Source: Betaproteobacteria bacterium (GTDB taxonomy: Bacteria > Pseudomonadota > Gammaproteobacteria > Burkholderiales > Thiobacillaceae). Taken from it: DNA of 64,000 nucleotides. The stretch is taken from contig JACRAU010000023.1 in assembly GCA_016234655.1 (NCBI GenBank), forward strand, positions 42,066 to 106,065, written 5' to 3'. This document shows positions 8,639 to 46,235 of this stretch, piece after piece. The position numbers and the translations under genes are program-made. Position 1 is the first letter of the stretch, and each line of letters starts with the position of its first letter. Below the pieces are notes generated by a model that saw only the letters and a list, made by a program, of their open reading frames with translations, made no database searches and was not told where the DNA came from.

Positions 8639-9943
8639 ATGCTCAGCGCTATCGAATACCGCCGCTTCCAGCAGGTCCGCTGGACCGCCTATGCCCTGCT
8701 GGTGCTGTCCTACATGCTGGTCTACTTCCACCGCATGGCGCCCGGCGTGGTCGCGGCCGACCTGATGCGGGCCTTCCACACCAGCGGCGCCGAGCTAGGT
8801 TCCTTGGCCGCGATGTATTACTACGTCTACACCGCGATGCAGATTCCTTCCGGCATCCTGGCCGATACCCTCGGTCCGCGCATCAGCGTCACCGTCGGCG
8901 CCGTGGTCGCCGGCGTCGGCTCCATCCTGTTCGGCCTGGCGCCCGACCTCGCCGCCGCCTCGACCGGGCGCTTCCTGGTCGGCCTCGGCGTCTCGGTCGT
9001 CTTCGTCGGCCTCATGCGCTCCAACACCGTGTGGTTCAGCGAACGCCGCTACGGTCTGGTCAGCGGCCTGACCCTGCTGCTGGGCAACCTGGGCTCCATC
9101 CTGGCGGCCGGGCCGCTGGCCGCGCTGCTCCTGTGGTTCTCCTGGCGCAACGTCTTCGTCGCCGCCGGCCTGCTCTCTCTGCTGTTGGCCGTGCTCACCT
9201 ATGCCTTCGTGCGCAACCGGCCGGAGGACGCCGGCTTTCCCTCGGTCCGCGCCATGGCCGGCGAGGCCGAGCACGCGATGAGCGAGCGCCATTGGCGGCA
9301 CGAGCTCAAGGCCGTGCTCGGCGACCGCAAGGTCTGGCCCGGTTTCTGGGTCAACTTCGGCGTCACCGGCAGCCTGTTCGCCTTCGCCGGGCTATGGGGC
9401 GTGCCCTTGATGCGCGACCTGTTCGGCCTCACCCGCGGCGAGGCCTCGCTCTACACCACCGCCGCCCTGGCCGGCTTCGCCGTCGGCACCTTCTTCATGG
9501 GCTGGCTGTCCGACCGCCTGCACCGGCGCCGGCCGGTCATCCTCGGCGCCGGCCTGCTGTCCTGCGCCAGTTGGCTCGGCCTCATCCTGCTGCCCTGGGG
9601 GCCGGGCTGGTCGGGTTTGCTGCTCTATGCGGTGCTTGGCCTGTCGGCCGGCGGCATGGTGGTCACCTACGCCGCGGCCAAGGAATGGGCGCCCCCGGCC
9701 AACGCCGGCATGGCCATCGCCCTGGTCAACACCGGCCTCTTCCTCGGCGCCGCCATCATGCAGCCCCTGTTCGGCTGGGTGGCCGACCTGAGCTGGGACG
9801 GCACCCTGCTAGAAGGCGTGCGGGTCTACAACTGGGCGGGCTATCGCAACGGCCTGGCCGTCTCCGCCGGCTTCGCCTTCATCGCCGTGCTCGGCGGCTG
9901 GCGCTTGAATGAAACGCACTGCCGAAACCAGACCCTGAAATGA
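8639..9943 (+). CDS. MFS transporter
   Basis: 434-aa hydrophobic ORF with ~12 predicted TM segments; MFS loop motif GILADTLGPR. Confidence 0.85.
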   Translation: MLSAIEYRRFQQVRWTAYALLVLSYMLVYFHRMAPGVVAADLMRAFHTSGAELGSLAAMYYYVYTAMQIPSGILADTLGPRISVTVGAVVAGVGSILFGLAPDLAAASTGRFLVGLGVSVVFVGLMRSNTVWFSERRYGLVSGLTLLLGNLGSILAAGPLAALLLWFSWRNVFVAAGLLSLLLAVLTYAFVRNRPEDAGFPSVRAMAGEAEHAMSERHWRHELKAVLGDRKVWPGFWVNFGVTGSLFAFAGLWGVPLMRDLFGLTRGEASLYTTAALAGFAVGTFFMGWLSDRLHRRRPVILGAGLLSCASWLGLILLPWGPGWSGLLLYAVLGLSAGGMVVTYAAAKEWAPPANAGMAIALVNTGLFLGAAIMQPLFGWVADLSWDGTLLEGVRVYNWAGYRNGLAVSAGFAFIAVLGGWRLNETHCRNQTLK

Positions 9944-9953
9944 AAGACAACGC

Positions 9954-10043
9954 GTAGGGCGGCTTCGCGCAGCAAGCCGCCGAATGGAAGAATCCGACAC
10001 ATCTCATACGGCGCAGTGCTGCGCGACTGTGCCCTACAGCTCT
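9954..10043. repeat. REP doublet, left copy (two inverted ~29-nt GTAGGGCG...CGCCG units)
   Basis: gtagggcggcttcgcgcagcaagccgccg ... cggcgcagtgctgcgcgactgtgccctac; about 85-90% identical by eye to 17606-17697 in the same orientation. Confidence 0.75.
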
Positions 10044-10044
10044 G

Positions 10045-10323
10045 GTGTTGCTCTACTGGCAGATCGGGCGCGACATTCTGGCGCGGCAGGCCGAGCAAGG
10101 CTGGGGCGCGAAGGTGATCGAGCGGCTGGCGCAGGACCTGCGCACCGCTTTCCCGGACATGAAGGGGCTTTCACCGCGCAATCTCAAGTACATGCACGCC
10201 TTTGCCGAGGCGTGGCCGGATGAGGGATTTGTGCAAGAGGTGCTTGCACAATTGCCCTGGTACCACCAATTGGCGCTGCTGGACAAGCTGCATGGCCTGG
10301 CACAAAGCCACCACCCCAGCTAG
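10045..10323 (+). pseudogene. Remnant of a DUF1016 (YhcG-like, PDDEXK nuclease family) gene, truncated at both ends
   Basis: LLYWQIGRDILARQAEQGWGAKVIERLAQDL...GLSPRNLKYMHAFAEAWPD matches only the N-terminal DUF1016 region; family N-terminus absent; ORF ends after ~90 codons, no nuclease domain. Confidence 0.7.
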
Positions 10324-10446
10324 GGCCTTGAAATGGTAGGATTTGCGGCGGGAGACCACACCATTACATGACGCTCGAAGCCCTCGCTCGGGAAGGCATC
10401 GGCAAGTTACAAGCTATCCAAGCAGATAAGCAAGGATGAAAGACAG

Positions 10447-12564
10447 ATGACCAGCTCAACCAAGACATACCTCGAACAAGCTCTAGAAGATGGCCTTGCC
10501 AAGATTACAGGCGAAGGCAAAACCCAGCGAATTCACTACATCGCCGCCGATCATTCCGAGCGCTATTCCGACCCCGAGGAAAAGGTTCGCGCCGAGTTCT
10601 GGGCTGAGCTGATCTACAAATACGAATACAGGCCGGAGCGAATCGGGTTTGAGGTCAAGGTAGAGCGCCGCACCCCTGACGATAAGGCTGATTTGGTGAT
10701 CTACGCCGATGACGAAATGAAAGACCGCTATTTCGTCTTCGAATGTAAGCGTCCCGACATTAGTGATGCGGAATTCGCCCAGGCCATCGAACAAGCTTGC
10801 GGAAATAGGGCCAGCCTTGGAGCCAAATATGCAGGTGCCATCGCCGGCCTGACTCGCCGACTCCTCCGTTTTGATGATCCGAAAAAATTCCCTTCGGGTG
10901 AGCGTCAAAGAAACCGGATCGCGGATATACCGCTGCGCTATGGGAAACCGCCATCAAGCCGGTTTTTCAAAGGTGGGGTTCGCTATGAATTCGGGAAACT
11001 TGTCAAAGCCTCGGATTTGCCAGCCATTCCTCGGGAAGCGCTTCGATCCGCTATTCGCAAATGCCATCAAACATTATGGGAAGGTGGTCGCCGCAGTCCT
11101 ATTGCGGCCTTCGGCGAGTTTTGCAAGCTGGTCTTCGTGAAACACCGCGATGAAAAAGACCCGGACCGTCACGATGGCGTGCCCTACGAATTCCAAACTC
11201 GTGAAGATGAAACGCCTGAACAACTGGCCGCTCGTATCTACAGGCTGTATGACATTGAAAAGAGCGCCGACCCAACCGTATTCGAGGGGAAAATTAATGT
11301 CGATCCGCTCATTCTTGCGCAATGTGTGGAACACCTTGAAGCCATTTCCCTTGACCGAACTGAACTGGATACCAAGGGTGTGGCCTTCGAGGAGTTCATG
11401 GGGGGATTCTTCAAGGGCGACTTTGGCCAGTATTTCACGCCCCGCGAACTGATTGCTTTCGCGGTGGAAATATTGAACCCCGAGCGGAAAGACACGGTGC
11501 TCGACCCGGCTTGCGGTTCCGGGGGCTTTCTTCTCTATGCGCTTGACCATGTCCGTCGCGAAGCCGACCGCAAGAAAAAGCCCGGCACAATCGAACACTT
11601 TCAGTACTGGCACGACTTCGCCGAGAAGAACCTGTTTGGCATCGAGATCAACGAAGAACTGGCCCGTGTCGCCAAGATGAACATGATCATTCACGACGAC
11701 GGCCATACCAACATCGTCGGCCACGATGCGCTTGATCTATTCAAAGCGCCTCCGCCGAAGATGGATGCCGACGGGCGACTCATTGCGCCGCCGCCCAGAA
11801 CTTATCTCGGCGACCATAACGAAGGCATCAAGCCAGGTCGTTTTGACTTGATCCTGACCAACCCCCCCTTCGGTTCCGTCATCAAGCGCACAGAGAAGGC
11901 AGAAGGATACCTGGAGCAATTCGAGCTACGTAATTTCCTCTCGAAGAGCGCTACGGGTAGCGAGCCGGACGAATCGGAAAAAGGCGAGCAGGATGCCAAG
12001 CGCGGGGCCAAAGCCGTCAAGGACCGCGCCAGCATCAAGACCGAAATCCTGTTCCTGGAGCGGGTGCATTCTTTTCTCAAGCCAGGCACTGGGCGCGTTG
12101 CCATCGTCCTGCCCGACGGCATCCTCACCAACTCGTCGTTGCAAGGGGTGCGCGACTGGCTGCTGGATCATTTCCAACTGCTGGCCGTGGTGTCCCTGCC
12201 CCAGTTTGCCTTTGCCCACTACGACGCTGGCGTCAAAGCCAGCATCGTGTTCATGCGCCGATTGGCCGAGGATGAGGTGGTGTCCGACGACGCCCCCATC
12301 TTCATGGCTCTGGCCGAAAACATCGGCTACGACGCCACCGGGCGCAAGACCTTTGCCGTTACTCCGGTAAGCGAGACATCGGAAAAGGAAAAGGTCGAGA
12401 TTTTAAGTAGCGACCTATTCGATTACCGGGTGACCTACGAATGGAGCACCACCAACCCGAAGAAGCCGGATTGGAGCGAACGACATCGGGAGATCATTCC
12501 CGATACCGGGCTGGTTGCACAGTGGCGAGCATTTCAGAAGGACCCGACGTCTTTTTTCGTCTGA
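10447..12564 (+). CDS. N6-adenine DNA methyltransferase (HsdM-like, gamma class) fused to an N-terminal HsdR_N-type PD-(D/E)xK module
   Basis: 705-aa ORF; SAM motif VLDPACGSGGFLL, catalytic LTNPPFGS, FGQYFTPRELI; N-terminal ADLVIYADD...RYFVFECKRP resembles the D...E-x-K core of type I R-subunit N-terminal domains. Confidence 0.9.
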   Translation: MTSSTKTYLEQALEDGLAKITGEGKTQRIHYIAADHSERYSDPEEKVRAEFWAELIYKYEYRPERIGFEVKVERRTPDDKADLVIYADDEMKDRYFVFECKRPDISDAEFAQAIEQACGNRASLGAKYAGAIAGLTRRLLRFDDPKKFPSGERQRNRIADIPLRYGKPPSSRFFKGGVRYEFGKLVKASDLPAIPREALRSAIRKCHQTLWEGGRRSPIAAFGEFCKLVFVKHRDEKDPDRHDGVPYEFQTREDETPEQLAARIYRLYDIEKSADPTVFEGKINVDPLILAQCVEHLEAISLDRTELDTKGVAFEEFMGGFFKGDFGQYFTPRELIAFAVEILNPERKDTVLDPACGSGGFLLYALDHVRREADRKKKPGTIEHFQYWHDFAEKNLFGIEINEELARVAKMNMIIHDDGHTNIVGHDALDLFKAPPPKMDADGRLIAPPPRTYLGDHNEGIKPGRFDLILTNPPFGSVIKRTEKAEGYLEQFELRNFLSKSATGSEPDESEKGEQDAKRGAKAVKDRASIKTEILFLERVHSFLKPGTGRVAIVLPDGILTNSSLQGVRDWLLDHFQLLAVVSLPQFAFAHYDAGVKASIVFMRRLAEDEVVSDDAPIFMALAENIGYDATGRKTFAVTPVSETSEKEKVEILSSDLFDYRVTYEWSTTNPKKPDWSERHREIIPDTGLVAQWRAFQKDPTSFFV

Positions 12565-12599
12565 GCCCCGTCGTCGTAGGCGAAGCTCTATGCTTCGCG

Positions 12600-13964
12600 A
12601 TGCGACGGGGCAAAGCGGGACTTCGTTTTGACCCGAGCTTTCACCTGCCTAATCCTGATTTACCTGGGCAGTCGGGTTTCCCAATCAAGTTTGACGTAAA
12701 GTCTCTGGCGGCTTTGTGCTCCAACATAATTCAGCCAAACGAGTTCACCCGCGAATATACCGACGATTCTCCAGATTCCGTTGCGCTGATTCGCGCCGCC
12801 AACGTACGGGATTGCGAACTAGACCTTTCCGACTTGGTGTTTGTCGCTAAATCTAAGTTGGAATCTAAGTCATTCGACGCATCCTACATTAAGGAAGGCG
12901 ATATTCTAATTACGAGAACTGGAGCCAAGGCGGGCGAGACTTGCGTGGTGCCGCAGCTGAAGCGGGACTATATCGTTTCATCTCATTCAATCCGCGTTGT
13001 TCCTCGGAAGGAGGCGGTTGAATCGAGATATCTTGAAATGTTTCTAATCAGTCGTTGGGGCAAAGCGCAGGTGAATCGTCTTTTTACGGGCGCTGCACAG
13101 CCTCAACTACAGCTCTCTACCGTTAGCCAGCTTCAAATCTCGATTCCGCCCCGGGCCAAGCAAATTGACCTGATCGCTGCTATGGATGCGGCGCGGGTGG
13201 AGCGCTGGGCGAAGCTAGCCGAAGCTGACGCCCTGCTCGCAGGACTCGATGGCTACGTGCTGGAGGCCCTCGGCCTTACCCCGCCACCCAAGGATGAGCG
13301 CAAGGTATATGCGGTATCCAAATCCTCACTTGGCAGCCAATCGCGACTCAACGCCGATTACTTCCACCCTGAGCGCATCCTGGCACTTCGCGCCCTGGAA
13401 CATCCCATGCAACACCTGGATTGCCCTCGGTTAGAAGAGGTTGTGGGCTTCATCCGCGACCAGATCAAAACGCCCGGTCCCAACTACCTCAGTCTTGCCA
13501 ACGTGCAGAGCCATACTGGCGAACTCGTTCCTACGGACGAGAACGTAACCGGTGCCTGTTCCACATTTCAACGTGGCGACGTGTTGTTTGCCCGTCTGCG
13601 GCCATACCTCAACAAGGTTCACACGGCGGAAGCCGATGGCTGTTGCTCGCCGGAGTTCCACGTCTTGCGGATCAAGGATGCTGACGCACTTTCCCCGGAT
13701 TATCTGGCCGCCATCCTGCGTAGCAGCCTGACCTTGGCGCAAACCCGTCACATGATGACTGGCAACACCCATCCCCGATTGACGAATGAGGATGTGGTGA
13801 ATCTGGTCATCCCCGTGCCCAAACCAGCCATTCAGGAAATGATCGCCACCGAAGCCCGCCGCCGCCGTGAGGAAGCCCGTCGCTTGCGCGCCGAAGCGGA
13901 AGCCGGTTGGCAGGCGGCAAAGCGCTGGTTCGAGGAACAATTACTTGGGCCGGTGCAGCCATGA
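12600..13964 (+). CDS. hsdS: Restriction-modification specificity subunit (HsdS-like, two target-recognition domains)
   Basis: Two TRD halves each ending in a conserved helical spacer (QLQISIPPRAKQIDLIAAMDAA...; VNLVIPVPKPAIQEMIATEARRRREEARRLRAEAE...). Start set at the first ATG after the methylase stop; the track ORF begins earlier at 12441 inside the methylase gene. Confidence 0.8.
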   Translation: MRRGKAGLRFDPSFHLPNPDLPGQSGFPIKFDVKSLAALCSNIIQPNEFTREYTDDSPDSVALIRAANVRDCELDLSDLVFVAKSKLESKSFDASYIKEGDILITRTGAKAGETCVVPQLKRDYIVSSHSIRVVPRKEAVESRYLEMFLISRWGKAQVNRLFTGAAQPQLQLSTVSQLQISIPPRAKQIDLIAAMDAARVERWAKLAEADALLAGLDGYVLEALGLTPPPKDERKVYAVSKSSLGSQSRLNADYFHPERILALRALEHPMQHLDCPRLEEVVGFIRDQIKTPGPNYLSLANVQSHTGELVPTDENVTGACSTFQRGDVLFARLRPYLNKVHTAEADGCCSPEFHVLRIKDADALSPDYLAAILRSSLTLAQTRHMMTGNTHPRLTNEDVVNLVIPVPKPAIQEMIATEARRRREEARRLRAEAEAGWQAAKRWFEEQLLGPVQP

Positions 13965-15124
13965 TGTTCGAATTCCTGATTGCCTATCACCACGCCCCCG
14001 ACACCGAAATCGTCGAGGTGATCCGCGATGTTTTATCCAAGGTGTTGGAAGACAACCTCAATGAATTCGATGGTGAGGCGGTCGAGCGGATGGTGGTTCC
14101 AAGTCTGGAAAGGCCCGGCGACTATTTGGTGGGAGGGGATGGCGATGAGTTCCGCCGTGTGTTGTTCGGCTTCACCCTGGATTTGCCGGAAGAAACTGGC
14201 TCCATACGCACCGTGGTGGATGAGTTTTCGGAAGCCTTGAACACCGCCCCCGTCGTTCATCTGGTCAAGTTCGACGATCCCCTGATCCGGGCTGATCTGG
14301 CGCGTTGGGCGGATGAAATCTACGCCTTGGAAATGAAGTTGCGGCGGGTGCTGACGCTGGTCTATCTTCATGCTTATCAAGACGGTGATCCCTATGACTT
14401 ACTAAGCGAGGAAAGCACCCAGACCATCGCCAAGGAACGGCCGAAGCCCGAGCACATGAAGGACCGGGCGGAGAATCAATTTTTCCATCTGACCTTCAGC
14501 CAGTATGTCGGTCTCAACCGGCGACCAGAATTCAAGCTCCCTGAGTTACTGGAACTGATCCGTGACAAGGAGGCTTACGACGCCCTCCGCGAAGAACTCG
14601 CCCGCGCACCTGTGGAAGATGAGGACGACGCCGTATTGCTGGCAGGCCTCAAGGAACGCATGGAAGCCATCGAGGCCATGCGCAACTGCTGCGCCCACAG
14701 CCGCAGGCCATCCAAGAAGGTGATCGAGAACTACGACAACGCCCGGCCGTTGTTGGATCAACTCCTGGATAGTTACCTTGTCCGCTGGGAGTGGTCGGAA
14801 CCGGTGGAGGAAATGCCTTGGGATGCCGCCGCGCGGGAAGCCGTTGAGCATGCAATGGAGCATGCCCGCTGGGATGAAGAAAACCAGGAAATCACCCTGT
14901 TCGACGCCGACGACGACCGGATGCAGTGGACCGCAAGCGGCATAGGCGAGCTTCAAGACCAGTTGGCCCAGATTGCCGCGAGTGCCTTCTATGCCAACGC
15001 CCCAAGGGAGGGCGGCGAGTTTGTCTTCGAGTGTGACGAGTATGGGGTAGTCGAATCGGTACTTGATGACTACCGGGAACGACTAGAGGAATTCTTCAAA
15101 GCGCGCGATGACGCGGATGATTAG
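13961..15124 (+). CDS. Acidic HEPN/Abi_2-like protein (R-x4-H motif)
   Basis: ATGA overlap with the hsdS stop; FHLTFSQYVGL ... AIEAMRNCCAHSRRP matches the Abi_2/HEPN pattern (TFG-L ... RN-x-x-AH). The rest is unrecognised and strongly Asp/Glu-rich. Confidence 0.6.
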   Translation: MMFEFLIAYHHAPDTEIVEVIRDVLSKVLEDNLNEFDGEAVERMVVPSLERPGDYLVGGDGDEFRRVLFGFTLDLPEETGSIRTVVDEFSEALNTAPVVHLVKFDDPLIRADLARWADEIYALEMKLRRVLTLVYLHAYQDGDPYDLLSEESTQTIAKERPKPEHMKDRAENQFFHLTFSQYVGLNRRPEFKLPELLELIRDKEAYDALREELARAPVEDEDDAVLLAGLKERMEAIEAMRNCCAHSRRPSKKVIENYDNARPLLDQLLDSYLVRWEWSEPVEEMPWDAAAREAVEHAMEHARWDEENQEITLFDADDDRMQWTASGIGELQDQLAQIAASAFYANAPREGGEFVFECDEYGVVESVLDDYRERLEEFFKARDDADD

Positions 15125-15138
15125 GGGGTGAAGACATC

Positions 15139-16170
15139 ATGGCCATTTGGTTGATCCGCGCCGGTTCTCACGGCGAATACGAACAGAAGTTCATCCAGGA
15201 AAACCGCGTCTATGTGACCTGGGACGGCCTGGATGTGGACCTGGCCAAGCTCAAGCAGCGGGCCGACCTGACGGCGGCGATGACCGAGCGTTACCCGGAC
15301 ACTAAGCCGAGGGCGATCATGAATTGGGTGAGCCAGGTCTGGCCGTTTGCCCACGAAATCAAGAAGGGCGACTTGGTCGTTCTGCCGCTCAAGACCCAGC
15401 CGGCAATCTACATCGGCGAAGTGACCGGCGACTATCAGCCTGCGCCTGGTGGGCCTAATCCCTTCTACCACTGGCGGGCGGTGAAGTGGATTGCCGAGGG
15501 CGTGCCGCGTAGCAACTTCGGCAAAGATTTGCTCTTCACCTTCGGTGCCTTCCTGACCATCTGCCGGGTGCAGCGGAACAATGCCGAGCAGCGCATCGCC
15601 GCTATGCGCGCCAATGGTTGGAAGCCGGAAACCGCTGCCGCTACGACCAAGGCGACTACCCAGGCAACCGACGAGGTGGCCGAGGATACTGACCTCGAAG
15701 AGCTCGCCCGTGATCAGATCGCCGACCTGATTGCGGCCCGCTTCAAGGGGCATGGCCTGACGCGCCTGGTGGAAGCGATTCTTCAGGCACAGGGCTATAC
15801 GACCTACCGAAGCCCCGAGGGGGCGGACGGCGGAGCGGATATTCTGGCCGGTTCCGGGCCACTTGGCTTTGGCGCGCCGCGTCTCTGTGTCGAAGTGAAA
15901 TCCGAGTCTGCGCCGATTGGCCGTGAGCCGGTGGACAAGTTGCTGGGGGCCATGACCAAATTCAACGCCAGCGAAGGGCTCTTTGTGGCCTGGGGTGGTT
16001 TCAAGGGCAATGTGCAGAAGGAGCTGGCCACGCAATTCTTCCGCCTGCGCCTTTGGACACGCAAGGAATTGCTGGAGCAGTTGTTCGAGCAGTACGACCG
16101 GCTAGACGAGGACTTGAAGGCCGAGCTGCCACTGAAGCGCGTTTGGATGGTGGCGGCGCAGGAGGAGTAG
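15139..16170 (+). CDS. Mrr-cat family restriction endonuclease with an uncharacterised N-terminal domain
   Basis: C-terminal GADGGADILA...PRLCVEVKSES (D...E-x-K) and FVAWGGF typical of the Mrr catalytic domain; N-terminal ~150 aa (MAIWLIRAGSHGE...KKGDLVVLP...YHWRAVKWI) of unknown fold. Confidence 0.85.
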   Translation: MAIWLIRAGSHGEYEQKFIQENRVYVTWDGLDVDLAKLKQRADLTAAMTERYPDTKPRAIMNWVSQVWPFAHEIKKGDLVVLPLKTQPAIYIGEVTGDYQPAPGGPNPFYHWRAVKWIAEGVPRSNFGKDLLFTFGAFLTICRVQRNNAEQRIAAMRANGWKPETAAATTKATTQATDEVAEDTDLEELARDQIADLIAARFKGHGLTRLVEAILQAQGYTTYRSPEGADGGADILAGSGPLGFGAPRLCVEVKSESAPIGREPVDKLLGAMTKFNASEGLFVAWGGFKGNVQKELATQFFRLRLWTRKELLEQLFEQYDRLDEDLKAELPLKRVWMVAAQEE

Positions 16171-16247
16171 GGCGAGGAAAGATCGGCGTGTGAATGGCTT
16201 CAGGTCGACCAGAACGGCCACCGCCATCGCTTCTTGTCTGACCCGCC

Positions 16248-16790
16248 TTAAACCCCCGCCGGCAGCTTGGCCGCCATCATCTTCCTCCGGTCCAGCTTGT
16301 CGCCGTCGACGATGAAGGTGCCGTCGCCCACCGCGTGCAGCGTGCGCTTTTCCTTGCGCGCCGTGTTCTTGTAGGCGGCCACGCCTTCCAGCACGATGAG
16401 GTTGTGCTTTCTGACCATGTCGACGACCCGGCATTCGATGTTGGCCAGGCATTCCTTGATCAAGGGCGCCTTGACGATCTTGCCCGGCTCGGGCGTGAGG
16501 CCGAACTTGGCGAACTTGTCGGTGTCGGCGCCGGAGCGGGTGCCGATGCCGACTACCTGGTCCAGCAGGTCGACGGTGGGGATGGCGATGACGCACTCCC
16601 GGTGCTTGCGCAGCGCGGCGAAGGAGTAGTTCCAGGCGCCGGTGCAGATGCCGAACGCCGGCGTGAAGTCCAGCACCATGGTCCAGGAGAGGGTCATGAT
16701 GTTGTTCTTCTTGCCGTCATGGGTGGTCACCAGGACGACGGGTCCGGGTTCCATCAGGGTAAAGGCCTTGCCAAGTTCCATCTCACGCAT
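16248..16790 (-). CDS. Flavin reductase-like FMN-binding protein
   Basis: 180-aa ORF; PGPVVLVTTHDGKKNNIMTLSWTM and overall split-barrel flavin reductase domain pattern. Confidence 0.85.
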   Translation of the reverse strand: MREMELGKAFTLMEPGPVVLVTTHDGKKNNIMTLSWTMVLDFTPAFGICTGAWNYSFAALRKHRECVIAIPTVDLLDQVVGIGTRSGADTDKFAKFGLTPEPGKIVKAPLIKECLANIECRVVDMVRKHNLIVLEGVAAYKNTARKEKRTLHAVGDGTFIVDGDKLDRRKMMAAKLPAGV

Positions 16791-16938
16791 GACGCACCTC
16801 CATGATTCCTACTGAAATAGGCGCTTATTTCACAGTGTAGTCCTCGCCAGGGCGGATGCAGGCGGGCGGTTTCCCGACATCGCCTGTCGTGGCTGCCCAT
16901 GTTAGCGTTCGCCCTCTCGATCCTGGATGTTGGAGTTA

Positions 16939-16968
16939 TTGACAACGCATCGCCGGCGTTGTCACAAT
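16939..16968 (+). promoter_or_regulatory. Putative sigma70 promoter (TTGACA-18 nt-CACAAT) overlapped by a 9-bp inverted repeat operator
   Basis: TTGACA 16939-16944, CACAAT 16963-16968; perfect inverted repeat TGACAACGC (16940-16948) / GCGTTGTCA (16956-16964). Confidence 0.4.
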
Positions 16969-16975
16969 GTCCAAC

Positions 16976-17272
16976 ATGAAAGCCGTGCAGCTCGTCTCGA
17001 CGCGCATCTCATACTCGGAAGTGGCCTTTGCCGAGCTCGTGCTGTGGCGCTTGCCTCAAGCCGTGGAGGGGTCGGCCCATGGCTTCAAGTATCGGCTTGC
17101 CTACGTGGTGCGTGGCGAATGTGTTCTTCGTTACGACAACGAGGTTGGGAAAGGCGATCATCGGCATGTCGGCCGAATTGAAAGCGCCTACACCTTCACG
17201 ACCCCGGAGAAATTGATTGCCGACTTCCAACGTGACATTGAGAGGTGGAACGATGAAAACCGTGACGCTTGA
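16976..17272 (+). CDS. DUF6516 (TumE-like) putative toxin of a TA pair
   Basis: HGFKYRLAYVVRGECVLRYDNEVGKGDHRH block characteristic of DUF6516. Track ORF starts at ATG 16967, which overlaps the putative -10, so ATG 16976 (MKAVQL...) is preferred. Confidence 0.65.
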   Translation: MKAVQLVSTRISYSEVAFAELVLWRLPQAVEGSAHGFKYRLAYVVRGECVLRYDNEVGKGDHRHVGRIESAYTFTTPEKLIADFQRDIERWNDENRDA

Positions 17273-17600
17273 CGTTCGCTCGCCCTCCGATGCGATGGCG
17301 GACTTCACCCAGGCCTGGAAAACGGGCAAACCGCAACGCTCCGCCCGTATCAGTTTTGCCACGCCCGAGCTGCTTTGGAAGGTGCTTACCGAAAAGCGCT
17401 GGGAGCTACTGAAGGCATTGTGCGGGGCCGGCCCCATGTCGATTCGCGAGGCGGCCCGTCGCGTTGGCCGTGACGTGAAGGCTGTTCACGGCGACGTAAC
17501 GGCGCTGTTGAATGCCGGTGTGCTTGATCGCACGGAGGACGGCCAGATCGTTTTTCCGTTCGAGGCCGTGAAAGTCGAGTTCCTTTTGCAGGCGGCATAG
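17253..17600 (+). CDS. HTH DNA-binding protein, putative cognate antitoxin/regulator
   Basis: Overlaps the upstream gene by 20 nt; winged-HTH segment MSIREAARRVGRDVKAVHGDVTALLNAGVL; start at MKTVTLDV preceded by gagaggtgg. Confidence 0.65.
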   Translation: MKTVTLDVRSPSDAMADFTQAWKTGKPQRSARISFATPELLWKVLTEKRWELLKALCGAGPMSIREAARRVGRDVKAVHGDVTALLNAGVLDRTEDGQIVFPFEAVKVEFLLQAA

Positions 17601-17605
17601 CACTT

Positions 17606-17697
17606 GTAGGGGCGGCTTCGCGTGGCAAGCCGCCGAATGGAAGAATCCGACCCTTACATACGGCGCAGTGCTGCGCGACTGCGCCCTACGGCTCTAC
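17606..17697. repeat. REP doublet, right copy
   Basis: gtaggggcggcttcgcgtggcaagccgccgaatggaagaatccgac...cggcgcagtgctgcgcgactgcgccctac; direct repeat of 9954-10043. Confidence 0.75.
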
Positions 17698-17724
17698 AGC
17701 CCTGTCCTGATCGGCGGGCATCAT

Positions 17725-17753
17725 AAAAAACGCCGGCTCGGGGCCGGCGTTTC
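17725..17753. terminator. Bidirectional rho-independent terminator
   Basis: aaaaaa-CGCCGGC-tcgg-GGCCGGCG-ttt between convergent genes. Confidence 0.65.
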
Positions 17754-17802
17754 GTAGGGTGCGTTCAACGCACCATGTGAAGGTGCACGGAGTGCACCCT
17801 AC
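17754..17802. repeat. Second REP-like inverted pair (GTAGGGTGC...GCACCCTAC)
   Basis: gtagggtgcgttcaacgcacc ... ggtgcacggagtgcaccctac. Confidence 0.6.
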
Positions 17803-46147: not shown

Positions 46148-46235
46148 GGAGGCGTGGCCGAGTGGTTTAAGGCACCGGTCTTGAAAACCGGCAACGGGAA
46201 ACCGTTCGTGAGTTCGAATCTCACCGCCTCCGCCA
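46148..46235 (+). tRNA. tRNA-Ser (anticodon UGA)
   Basis: Manual cloverleaf: acceptor GGAGGCG/CGCCTCC, D-arm GCC-GAGTGGTTTAA-GGC, anticodon arm CCGGT-CTTGAAA-ACCGG, long variable arm, T-arm GTGAG-TTCGAAT-CTCAC, G-CCA end. Confidence 0.92.

Follow-up and report, generated by a model that had tools for sequence, protein, structure and literature searches.

What kind of defense system is encoded by four tightly packed genes that include a DNA methyltransferase and a specificity subunit but no HsdR? The genes lie in a 64,000-nucleotide (nt) stretch of DNA from a Betaproteobacteria bacterium of the Thiobacillaceae (GenBank assembly GCA_016234655.1, contig JACRAU010000023.1, positions 42,066–106,065 of the forward strand; this whole stretch is called the window), and we refer to them as M (nuclease-fused methyltransferase), S (specificity subunit), H (HEPN-like protein), and R (Mrr-type nuclease). 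The original prediction took them for a single four-gene defense operon, undescribed in kind and fitting neither a type I nor a type II restriction–modification (R–M) system. The open reading frames (ORFs) and a reading of the junctions confirm four tightly packed genes on the same strand, with a gap of 35 nt between M and S, a 4-nt ATGA overlap between S and H, and a gap of 14 nt between H and R, and Pfam agrees with the domain content proposed for them: HSDR_N_2 and N6_Mtase, Methylase_S, Abi_2 with an RNCCAH motif, and Mrr_cat. Across genomes, M, S, and H are predicted to form a conserved three-gene module, whereas R appears to be an appended gene. The features are the following, in positions of the window:

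10447–12564, + strand: M, 705 aa, with a TGA stop at 12562–12564
10573–10830, + strand: nuclease domain of M, residues 43–128, with putative catalytic residues E69, D82, E99, and K101
11368–12288, + strand: methyltransferase domain of M, residues 308–614, with motif I DPACGSGGF and motif IV NPPF
12600–13964, + strand: S, 454 aa counted from the ATG at 12600
13961–13964, + strand: ATGA, in which the S stop and the H start overlap (predicted translational coupling), read from the sequence
13961–15124, + strand: H, 387 aa, with a TAG stop at 15122–15124
14681–14698, + strand: HEPN motif R241-N242-C-C-A245-H246 (R-x4-H) of H, seen as MRNCCAH at residues 240–246
15139–16170, + strand: R, 343 aa

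Nucleotide similarity to related loci begins at about 10432–10459, the start of M, and ends at about 16147–16170, the stop of R, and the unit shared with them is therefore exactly the four genes. The S start at 12600 is backed by homologs, whose tblastn alignments begin at residue 1. With an H profile we fetched 94 H loci, 26 from contigs of one genome per species and 68 from metagenomes, and regarded as informative those whose H match was substantial and whose upstream sequence reached at least 3.6 kb. M and S lie directly upstream of H on the same strand in 38 of the 39 informative loci, and in the lone exception S was undetected. The 4-nt overlap between the S stop and the H start recurs in 58 of 65 loci, where identity to the window's H ranges from 31% to 100%, and this conservation argues for co-production. 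The hosts are spread over about ten phyla, with representatives in the Pseudomonadota, Desulfobacterota, Gemmatimonadota, Verrucomicrobiota, Chloroflexota, Binatia, Planctomycetota, Cyanobacteria, Acidobacteriota, Latescibacterota, and Melioribacteraceae. The M–S–H order is repeated in dozens of unrelated genomes, and the gene arrangement is far beyond chance. On these grounds H appears to be obligately and translationally coupled to the M–S enzyme, and the conserved coupling probably reflects a physical complex.

The linkage does not extend to the fourth gene. R follows H in 9 of the 43 loci with enough downstream sequence and is absent from the other 34, and the expectation that all four genes co-occur in other genomes thus held for M and S with H and mostly failed for R. 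Mobile elements yielded little: no relative of H was found among 72,556 plasmids, plasmid relatives of M are distant only, at most 33–45% identical, and one IMG/VR contig carries the M–S–H triad.

The identity of the M–S enzyme follows from where its nuclease lies. A tblastn search with type I HsdR found no HsdR-like gene in the whole 64-kb window (best E 1.1), in agreement with the earlier statement that the island has none, and none adjoins the M–S–H triad in the related loci inspected. The locus therefore lacks what defines a type I R–M system, HsdR alongside HsdM and HsdS; HsdR would be absent because the nuclease domain sits on M itself. Pfam places HSDR_N_2, which has the PD-(D/E)xK fold, at residues 43–128 of M and N6_Mtase at residues 308–614 (E 3e-32), and among solved structures its closest relative is RM.BsaXI (8w0p), which matches the methyltransferase portion at E 1.9e-33. 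A nuclease-domain profile of M, built from close and distant homologs, matches the N-terminal endonuclease domain of BsaXI (E 1.2e-7) and aligns D82/E99/K101 with D90/E105/K107, which mutagenesis has shown to be essential for cleavage (PMC11997821). Residues E69, D82, E99, and K101 are unchanged in 19 close and 11 distant homologs, and the methyltransferase motifs DPACGSGG and NPPF are invariant in 19 homologs, save one P-to-L change in one sequence; homologs of M across phyla are 62–92% identical. M is therefore predicted to be a fused RM subunit, combining a PD-(D/E)xK nuclease with a gamma-class N6-adenine DNA methyltransferase.

S contains two Pfam Methylase_S stretches and is matched by many PADLOC Specificity_I models (best E 1.4e-31). 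At the nucleotide level, its target recognition domain (TRD) regions, at about 12616–13170 and 13320–13810, are variable and the central and C-terminal regions are kept, which is the usual pattern of a specificity subunit, and we take S for an HsdS-type subunit with two TRDs. The two genes are fused in three loci of the clade (L012, L018, and L022), and the distant plasmid relatives of M occur as M+S pairs or single-chain fusions without a conserved third gene; the M–S pair therefore seems self-sufficient. Databases label M as a type I M subunit, and it matches the PADLOC model MTase_I PDLC03030 at E 6e-116 over residues 36–605 and TIGR00497 hsdM with 26 bits against a cut-off of 243. Judged by its domains, the pair has the layout of type IIB enzymes such as BcgI and BsaXI and is predicted to be a type IIB-like R–M enzyme. 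The earlier claim that the locus lies outside both type I and type II has to be given up, since a nuclease–methyltransferase fusion with an HsdS-like subunit and no HsdR is the described type IIB layout.

H belongs to a family that is named nowhere beyond "hypothetical protein" in the sources checked; it has no match in NCBIfam or PHROGs, and PADLOC gives a weak AbiD match only. Pfam Abi_2 (PF07751) matches H with 22.0 bits (E 2.3e-4, profile positions 24–181 of 184), and some homologs carry a precomputed PF07751 match; most of the Abi_2 matches that recur in the family lie under the Pfam threshold. Scanned singly, 25 of 58 family members match Abi_2 (E <= 0.01, best E 1.9e-6), and no other family recurs among them. 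We also aligned the window's H with 46 representatives that are 22–31% identical to it. Of these 47 sequences, 15 match Abi_2 (E <= 0.01, the window's H included) and 3 more match HEPN_Swt1, the sister family of Abi_2 in the published HEPN classification; these two are the sole Pfam families that recur across the H family. Down to 22% identity, the invariant residues are only E124, F179, Y182, R241, N242, and H246, with A245 nearly so, and R-N-x-x-A-H is therefore the best-kept feature of the family, being present in 60 of the 61 complete H ORFs. Searched exhaustively with the profile, 1.84 billion representative proteins yielded 516 representatives at E <= 1e-3, and H appears to represent a discrete family, set apart from the bulk of canonical Abi_2.

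The AlphaFold2 model of H (mean pLDDT, a per-residue confidence score, 87.7) shows a ferredoxin-like alpha/beta domain at residues 1–104, an all-helical domain at 107–274, in which a long helix ends at the motif, and an optional alpha/beta domain at 286–386; 25 of the complete ORFs have the long form and 36 the short form without the C-terminal domain. Against the Protein Data Bank (PDB) and BFVD, the full-length model gave weak matches only (E >= 0.003); these are to ferredoxin-like domains and stem from the N-terminal part of H. Residues 105–285, modeled alone, gave a mediocre second model (pLDDT 71.7), which matched only generic helical bundles, and sequence and profile searches of PDB with H returned nothing meaningful. 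The weak Foldseek neighbors of residues 1–104 (13961–14272, + strand) are RNA-binding alpha/beta domains, namely ribosomal protein S6, EF-1 beta, and PheRS beta, none of them significant (E 0.01–0.1). No ATPase family in Pfam, NCBIfam, or PADLOC matches H. Because of the profile matches and the motif, we assign H as a HEPN-like protein of the Abi2/Swt1 clade, presumably a divergent relative of Abi_2 and not a curated member. The HEPN/Abi_2 likeness claimed for the 387-aa protein is upheld to this extent, as is its linkage to methylase and specificity genes.

R has a different history. It matches Pfam Mrr_cat at residues 201–313 (E 2.4e-23) and, over residues 1–342 and positions 1–345 of a 346-position profile, the PADLOC candidate PDC-S02 (PDLC04815, E 8.8e-157), which PADLOC models as a single-gene candidate; its homologs combine PF28530 (DUF8426) with PF04471. 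Homologs of R number 3312 (E <= 1e-10, among 8000 candidates scored) against 341 for H (E <= 1e-3), an about tenfold difference, and are found at 80–89% identity in unrelated contexts. One lies 3' of a classical hsdMSR operon beside Wadjet (L107), one 3' of a reverse transcriptase (RT) system comprising STM3845 and an RT (L109), one 3' of a distant M–S pair without H (L110), and one alone among housekeeping genes (L108); the copies in L107, L109, and L110 are 83–89% identical. In those three loci, the DUF8426 and Mrr_cat gene stands last in unrelated defense operons and has their orientation, and some of the three lie within integrase–AlpA–DUF927 islands. R homologs thus seem to behave like a hitch-hiking terminal cassette of defense operons. 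We read R as an independent nuclease, separately mobile and lodging at the 3' ends of such operons, and probably type IV-like. One representative of PDC-S02 was assayed against T4, T5, and T7 in Escherichia coli and is not listed among the four protecting systems (PADLOC-candidate preprint). Where H is at least 65% identical to that of the window, R follows in seven of nine loci at a gap of 13–32 nt, and within this sub-clade it would now be part of the transcription unit. The proposal of a four-gene unit is not sustained: R is missing from most triad loci, occurs elsewhere at 80–89% identity, and is already represented in PADLOC.

If H depends on M–S, the converse need not be true. Relatives of M at 73–85% identity on long contigs showed that M–S in sister loci is not always accompanied by H and that other cargo can stand at the same position. 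Directly after M–S, the loci carry the following:

L103: H
L106: a disrupted H
L097 (the IMG/VR contig; M 65% identical): a short-form H
L098: the first 82 residues of H only (a 91-aa ORF, the N-terminal domain), then a MAD6-like kinase
L101, 9540–11419: an AriA/AbiLi-like ATPase and an AriB-like protein (PARIS/AbiL type)
L104, 9520–13080: a MAD3-like SMC ATPase of 1186 aa
L105 (GCA_038322235.1, JBBQFQ010000032.1): an unrelated 225-aa protein (9548–10225), R, and a UG13b reverse transcriptase
L099: a decayed locus

In L101 and L104, M is 75–80% identical to that of the window, and the cargo appears to tie this enzyme family to components of PARIS and of MADS. At the nucleotide level, L105 resembles the window until the end of S and again from the start of R, and H would therefore have been exchanged as a cassette; the 225-aa protein in its place contains QRNDFFHS, also an R-N-x3-H motif. 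A similar arrangement is seen far outside the clade, on the conjugative IncF plasmid NZ_LR890357.1 of Klebsiella pneumoniae (L096:5848–10063), where a very distant HSDR_N_2-methyltransferase gene is followed by S and by a 263-aa hypothetical protein that contains YAMRNALLHGE, with two DUF262 genes next; the gene of the 263-aa protein has a start that overlaps the S stop. Homology of the Klebsiella and L105 proteins to H was rejected, with hhalign probabilities of 6.7% and 0.3%, respectively, and RNxxxH as the only common element. Neither has a significant match or a name in Pfam, NCBIfam, PADLOC, or PHROGs, and we regard them as putative analogs of H, not homologs. The position 3' of S thus looks like a variable slot, filled mostly with modules of abortive-infection type, and H like one of its occupants.

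These patterns suggest what H may do. We propose that the locus is a three-gene module with an extra gene in which H is a guarded ribonuclease (RNase) of the PrrC or Ronin kind, acting as a suicide backup, and we give this proposal about an even chance of being right. It is favored because H depends on M–S whereas M–S does not depend on H, because a PARIS-like module is among the other occupants of its slot, and because Anantharaman et al. proposed such a role for R–M-linked HEPN genes: in their census, the HEPN genes of the Abi2/AbiD/AbiF clade are listed as "embedded in R-M operons", and a PrrC-like multi-pronged defense is suggested (Anantharaman et al. 2013, PMC3710099). PARIS, Ronin, and PrrC have been described as anti-anti-restriction backups, with Ronin responding to Ocr and ArdA (bioRxiv 10.1101/2023.04.06.535777), and the analogy to PrrC drawn in the original prediction seems a reasonable mechanistic model. 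In such a mechanism, H would bind the M–S complex through one of its non-HEPN domains and be kept inactive by it as a latent RNase. A phage might put the restriction complex out of action or keep it occupied, for instance by means of a DNA-mimic anti-restriction protein; this would release or activate H, which would then cut cellular or phage RNA and halt growth ahead of phage maturation, serving as a second line of defense. R would probably add a further layer of DNA restriction of its own, acting alone.

What would silence H can be narrowed down. AbiF, a member of the Abi_2 family, is neutralized by a non-coding RNA encoded upstream (PMC13064643). Rfam, searched for an RNA antitoxin or other RNA element, gave no match at E <= 1 over 9500–17800, and upstream of H there is no room for such a gene, for which reasons a protein partner is the likelier silencer. 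A bolder reading, which we hold tentatively and expect to be wrong somewhat more often than right, is that M–S–H is an undescribed three-part system in which the enzyme is the sensor that licenses a HEPN RNase, and that the slot after S is a general dock for interchangeable suicide effectors reading the state of M–S. With the same reserve, the docked effectors might then comprise the H family, other RNxxxH proteins, PARIS-like AriA/AriB, and SMC-like ATPases.

Several observations weigh against H being a guarded suicide RNase. The Abi_2 score of H lies below the gathering cut-off of 25.6 bits, and neither the complete model nor that of the helical domain on its own drew a significant match to a HEPN structure in Foldseek. 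H also lacks a recognizable sensor domain of the PrrC kind, such as an ATPase, and the RNase activity of H, its binding to M–S, and the trigger are all steps that we infer. The obligate linkage (38 of 39 loci) would also arise if H were an integral subunit of the restriction complex, needed for restriction itself and not as a suicide backup; the 4-nt coupling in 58 of 65 loci suggests a fixed stoichiometry with S, and the two extra conserved domains of H agree with such a place. We consider this unlikely, as we do the roles that an integral H might then have, such as sensing the invader's RNA or transcription, controlling the M nuclease, or breaking down phage transcripts without harm to the cell. 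Relatives of M at 73–85% identity occur in loci where H is missing or other cargo takes its place, the remoter M+S pairs and single-chain fusions lack a third gene, and the solved type IIB enzyme BsaXI is complete as (RM)2S (PMC11997821). It is improbable, too, that M–S is a Ronin-like decoy that no longer restricts and only baits phage anti-restriction proteins, leaving H to kill the cell. The layout of Ronin, hsdM and hsdS with no hsdR and a tightly linked toxic effector, is matched, and methyltransferase activity is dispensable in Ronin, but across phyla M keeps its nuclease quartet and methyltransferase motifs unchanged, and S has highly variable TRDs, which fits diversifying selection on DNA specificity. 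Invariant sites in M and variable TRDs in S mark an enzyme that still restricts and speak against a decoy.

The remaining two explanations differ in what they make of R and of the linkage. That the four genes form an obligate system in which R is the restriction nuclease, working with M–S and H, would account for the R genes directly behind H in the sub-clade of the window, for the lack of terminator-like sites at the gene junctions, and for R standing behind M–S-type genes in L105 and L110; a functional link of R may exist within that sub-clade, a further point against our treatment of R as a separate gene. We nevertheless judge an obligate four-gene system quite improbable, as 34 of 43 M–S–H loci lack R, R homologs far outnumber those of H and occur at 80–89% identity after hsdMSR, after an RT system, or alone, PADLOC has R as a single-gene candidate, and M already carries an intact nuclease. 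Least credible to us, and very improbable indeed, is that H is an independent toxin of the AbiF/AbiD type, a type III toxin–antitoxin with an RNA antitoxin of its own and a mere neighbor of the R–M genes in a defense island. The neutralization of AbiF by RNA and the chance clustering of defense genes in islands speak for it. Against it, H essentially never occurs without M–S, the start of H lies within the S stop and so leaves room for such an RNA only inside the S coding region, no Rfam match was found, and the H profile reaches only its 516 representatives, a family apart from canonical Abi_2. Between these alternatives, the guarded RNase remains our preferred reading of H.

The setting of the genes is consistent with acquired DNA: G+C is 0.55–0.59 over 10–15 kb and about 0.60–0.70 in the surrounding 8 kb. 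The island consists of the four genes and a DUF1016 fragment only. On its left, a gene fragment of 92 aa is followed outward by a major facilitator superfamily (MFS) transporter gene, and on its right lies a flavin reductase gene. The fragment (10045–10323, + strand) is the N-terminal part of a DUF1016/YhcG-type protein (Pfam DUF1016_N, E 2.9e-25), cut off just 5' of M, and may mark the landing of the four-gene cassette in, or its replacement of, another nuclease-family gene. About 0.8 kb past the island, beyond the flavin reductase gene, a TumE-family toxin gene (16967–17272, + strand; E 3.5e-13) overlaps the start of an HVO_A0114-type helix-turn-helix gene (17253–17600, + strand; E 2.6e-30), likely a toxin–antitoxin pair. 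The sole tRNA gene of the window, a tRNA-Ser with anticodon TGA (46148–46235, + strand), is far away, and the island is therefore not tRNA-associated. No terminator-like site was seen at any gene junction, and the promoter and terminator scans were uninformative in this G+C-rich DNA.

How much of this is new can be stated by part. Already known are the type IIB enzyme, the Abi2-clade HEPN protein, PDC-S02, and, from PrrC and Ronin, the idea of an R–M-guarded suicide effector. The claim that the combination is undescribed in kind therefore needs to be narrowed, with Anantharaman et al. 2013 (PMC3710099) and Ronin (bioRxiv 10.1101/2023.04.06.535777) as its precedents. What appears to be undescribed is the cross-phylum M–S–H triad, the unannotated H family with its two extra domains, the conserved overlap with S, and the interchangeable slot; the full-text literature on HEPN with hsdS/hsdM, on Abi_2 with R–M, and on BsaXI yielded no description of the triad. 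If H is a latent RNase guarded by M–S, the module would be a third, mechanistically distinct dead-man's switch on an R–M system, after PrrC and Ronin, and, unlike these, it spans roughly ten phyla. Its M–S part is compact, with just two subunits, and the structure of its close relative BsaXI has been solved; the changing cargo after S amounts to a natural experiment on the wiring of various abortive-infection effectors to one sensor. Since the H family is unannotated, current defense-system finders would miss M–S–H or call it an incomplete type I system; such an "orphan type I M+S without HsdR" should rather be taken as a type IIB-like enzyme that carries a nuclease of its own.

Among known systems, the type IIB enzymes BcgI and BsaXI are the nearest to M–S itself. 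The nuclease and methyltransferase domains of M are homologous to those of RM.BsaXI, a separate HsdS-like subunit carries two TRDs, and there is no ATP-dependent HsdR. Unlike the described type IIB systems, the module has a conserved third gene, and M, with 705 aa against the 916 aa of BsaXI, has no matched counterpart of the C-terminal "paddle" region; cutting at fixed distances on both sides of a bipartite site, with methylation of that site, is a trait of the BcgI/BsaXI type that M–S may share. In NCBIfam and PADLOC, MAD2 and MAD5 of MADS (mad1–8) are among the nearest named relatives of M and S, and genes resembling MAD3 and MAD6 are found behind S in sister loci. Membership in MADS was rejected, as the mandatory MAD6, MAD7, and MAD8 are absent from the island and the NCBIfam scores are 304 bits against a cut-off of 720 for M with MAD2 and 126 bits against a cut-off of 400 for S with MAD5. 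MANTIS/Gao_RL was likewise rejected, since its components differ (an AAA+ ATPase, a co-regulator, and a PLD helicase-nuclease). R matches the PDC-S02 model over its full length; PDC-S02 is itself only a candidate, and the operon-like linkage of R behind H is limited to one sub-clade.

For H, the comparison lies with guarded and abortive-infection effectors. The AbiF that has been studied is a type III toxin–antitoxin with an RNA antitoxin, whereas no such RNA is evident at H. The genes in the census of Anantharaman et al. 2013 share the HEPN clade, the R–M-embedded context, and the multi-pronged defense proposed for them, but the H family, its domain layout, its obligate M–S partner, and the coupling are not defined there (PMC3710099). 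Ronin is a tested hsdM–hsdS–effector system without hsdR, whose effector is always linked to hsdS/hsdM and sometimes stands beside a type I/type IV composite system (bioRxiv 10.1101/2023.04.06.535777). It shares with the present module a pair of M and S genes, the lack of hsdR, and an effector in tight linkage, in its case a toxin silenced by HsdMS. It differs in that RonA is a 61-aa membrane protein and the Ronin HsdM needs no catalytic activity, whereas H is predicted to be an unrelated soluble HEPN-like protein of 387 aa and M keeps its nuclease and methyltransferase motifs. PrrC, from the type Ic R–M locus EcoprrI, is likewise a HEPN-type RNase gene directly after the specificity gene of an R–M operon, and the logic proposed for it is that of a latent RNase held by the R–M complex and freed on phage inhibition (PMC3710099). 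PrrC has an N-terminal NTPase domain of ABC type (ABC/Rad50-like) and a classical HsdMSR partner; H, by comparison, has a ferredoxin-like N-terminal domain of about 100 aa and no ATPase, falls by its profile matches in the Abi2/Swt1 clade of HEPN proteins, and is paired with a type IIB-like enzyme.

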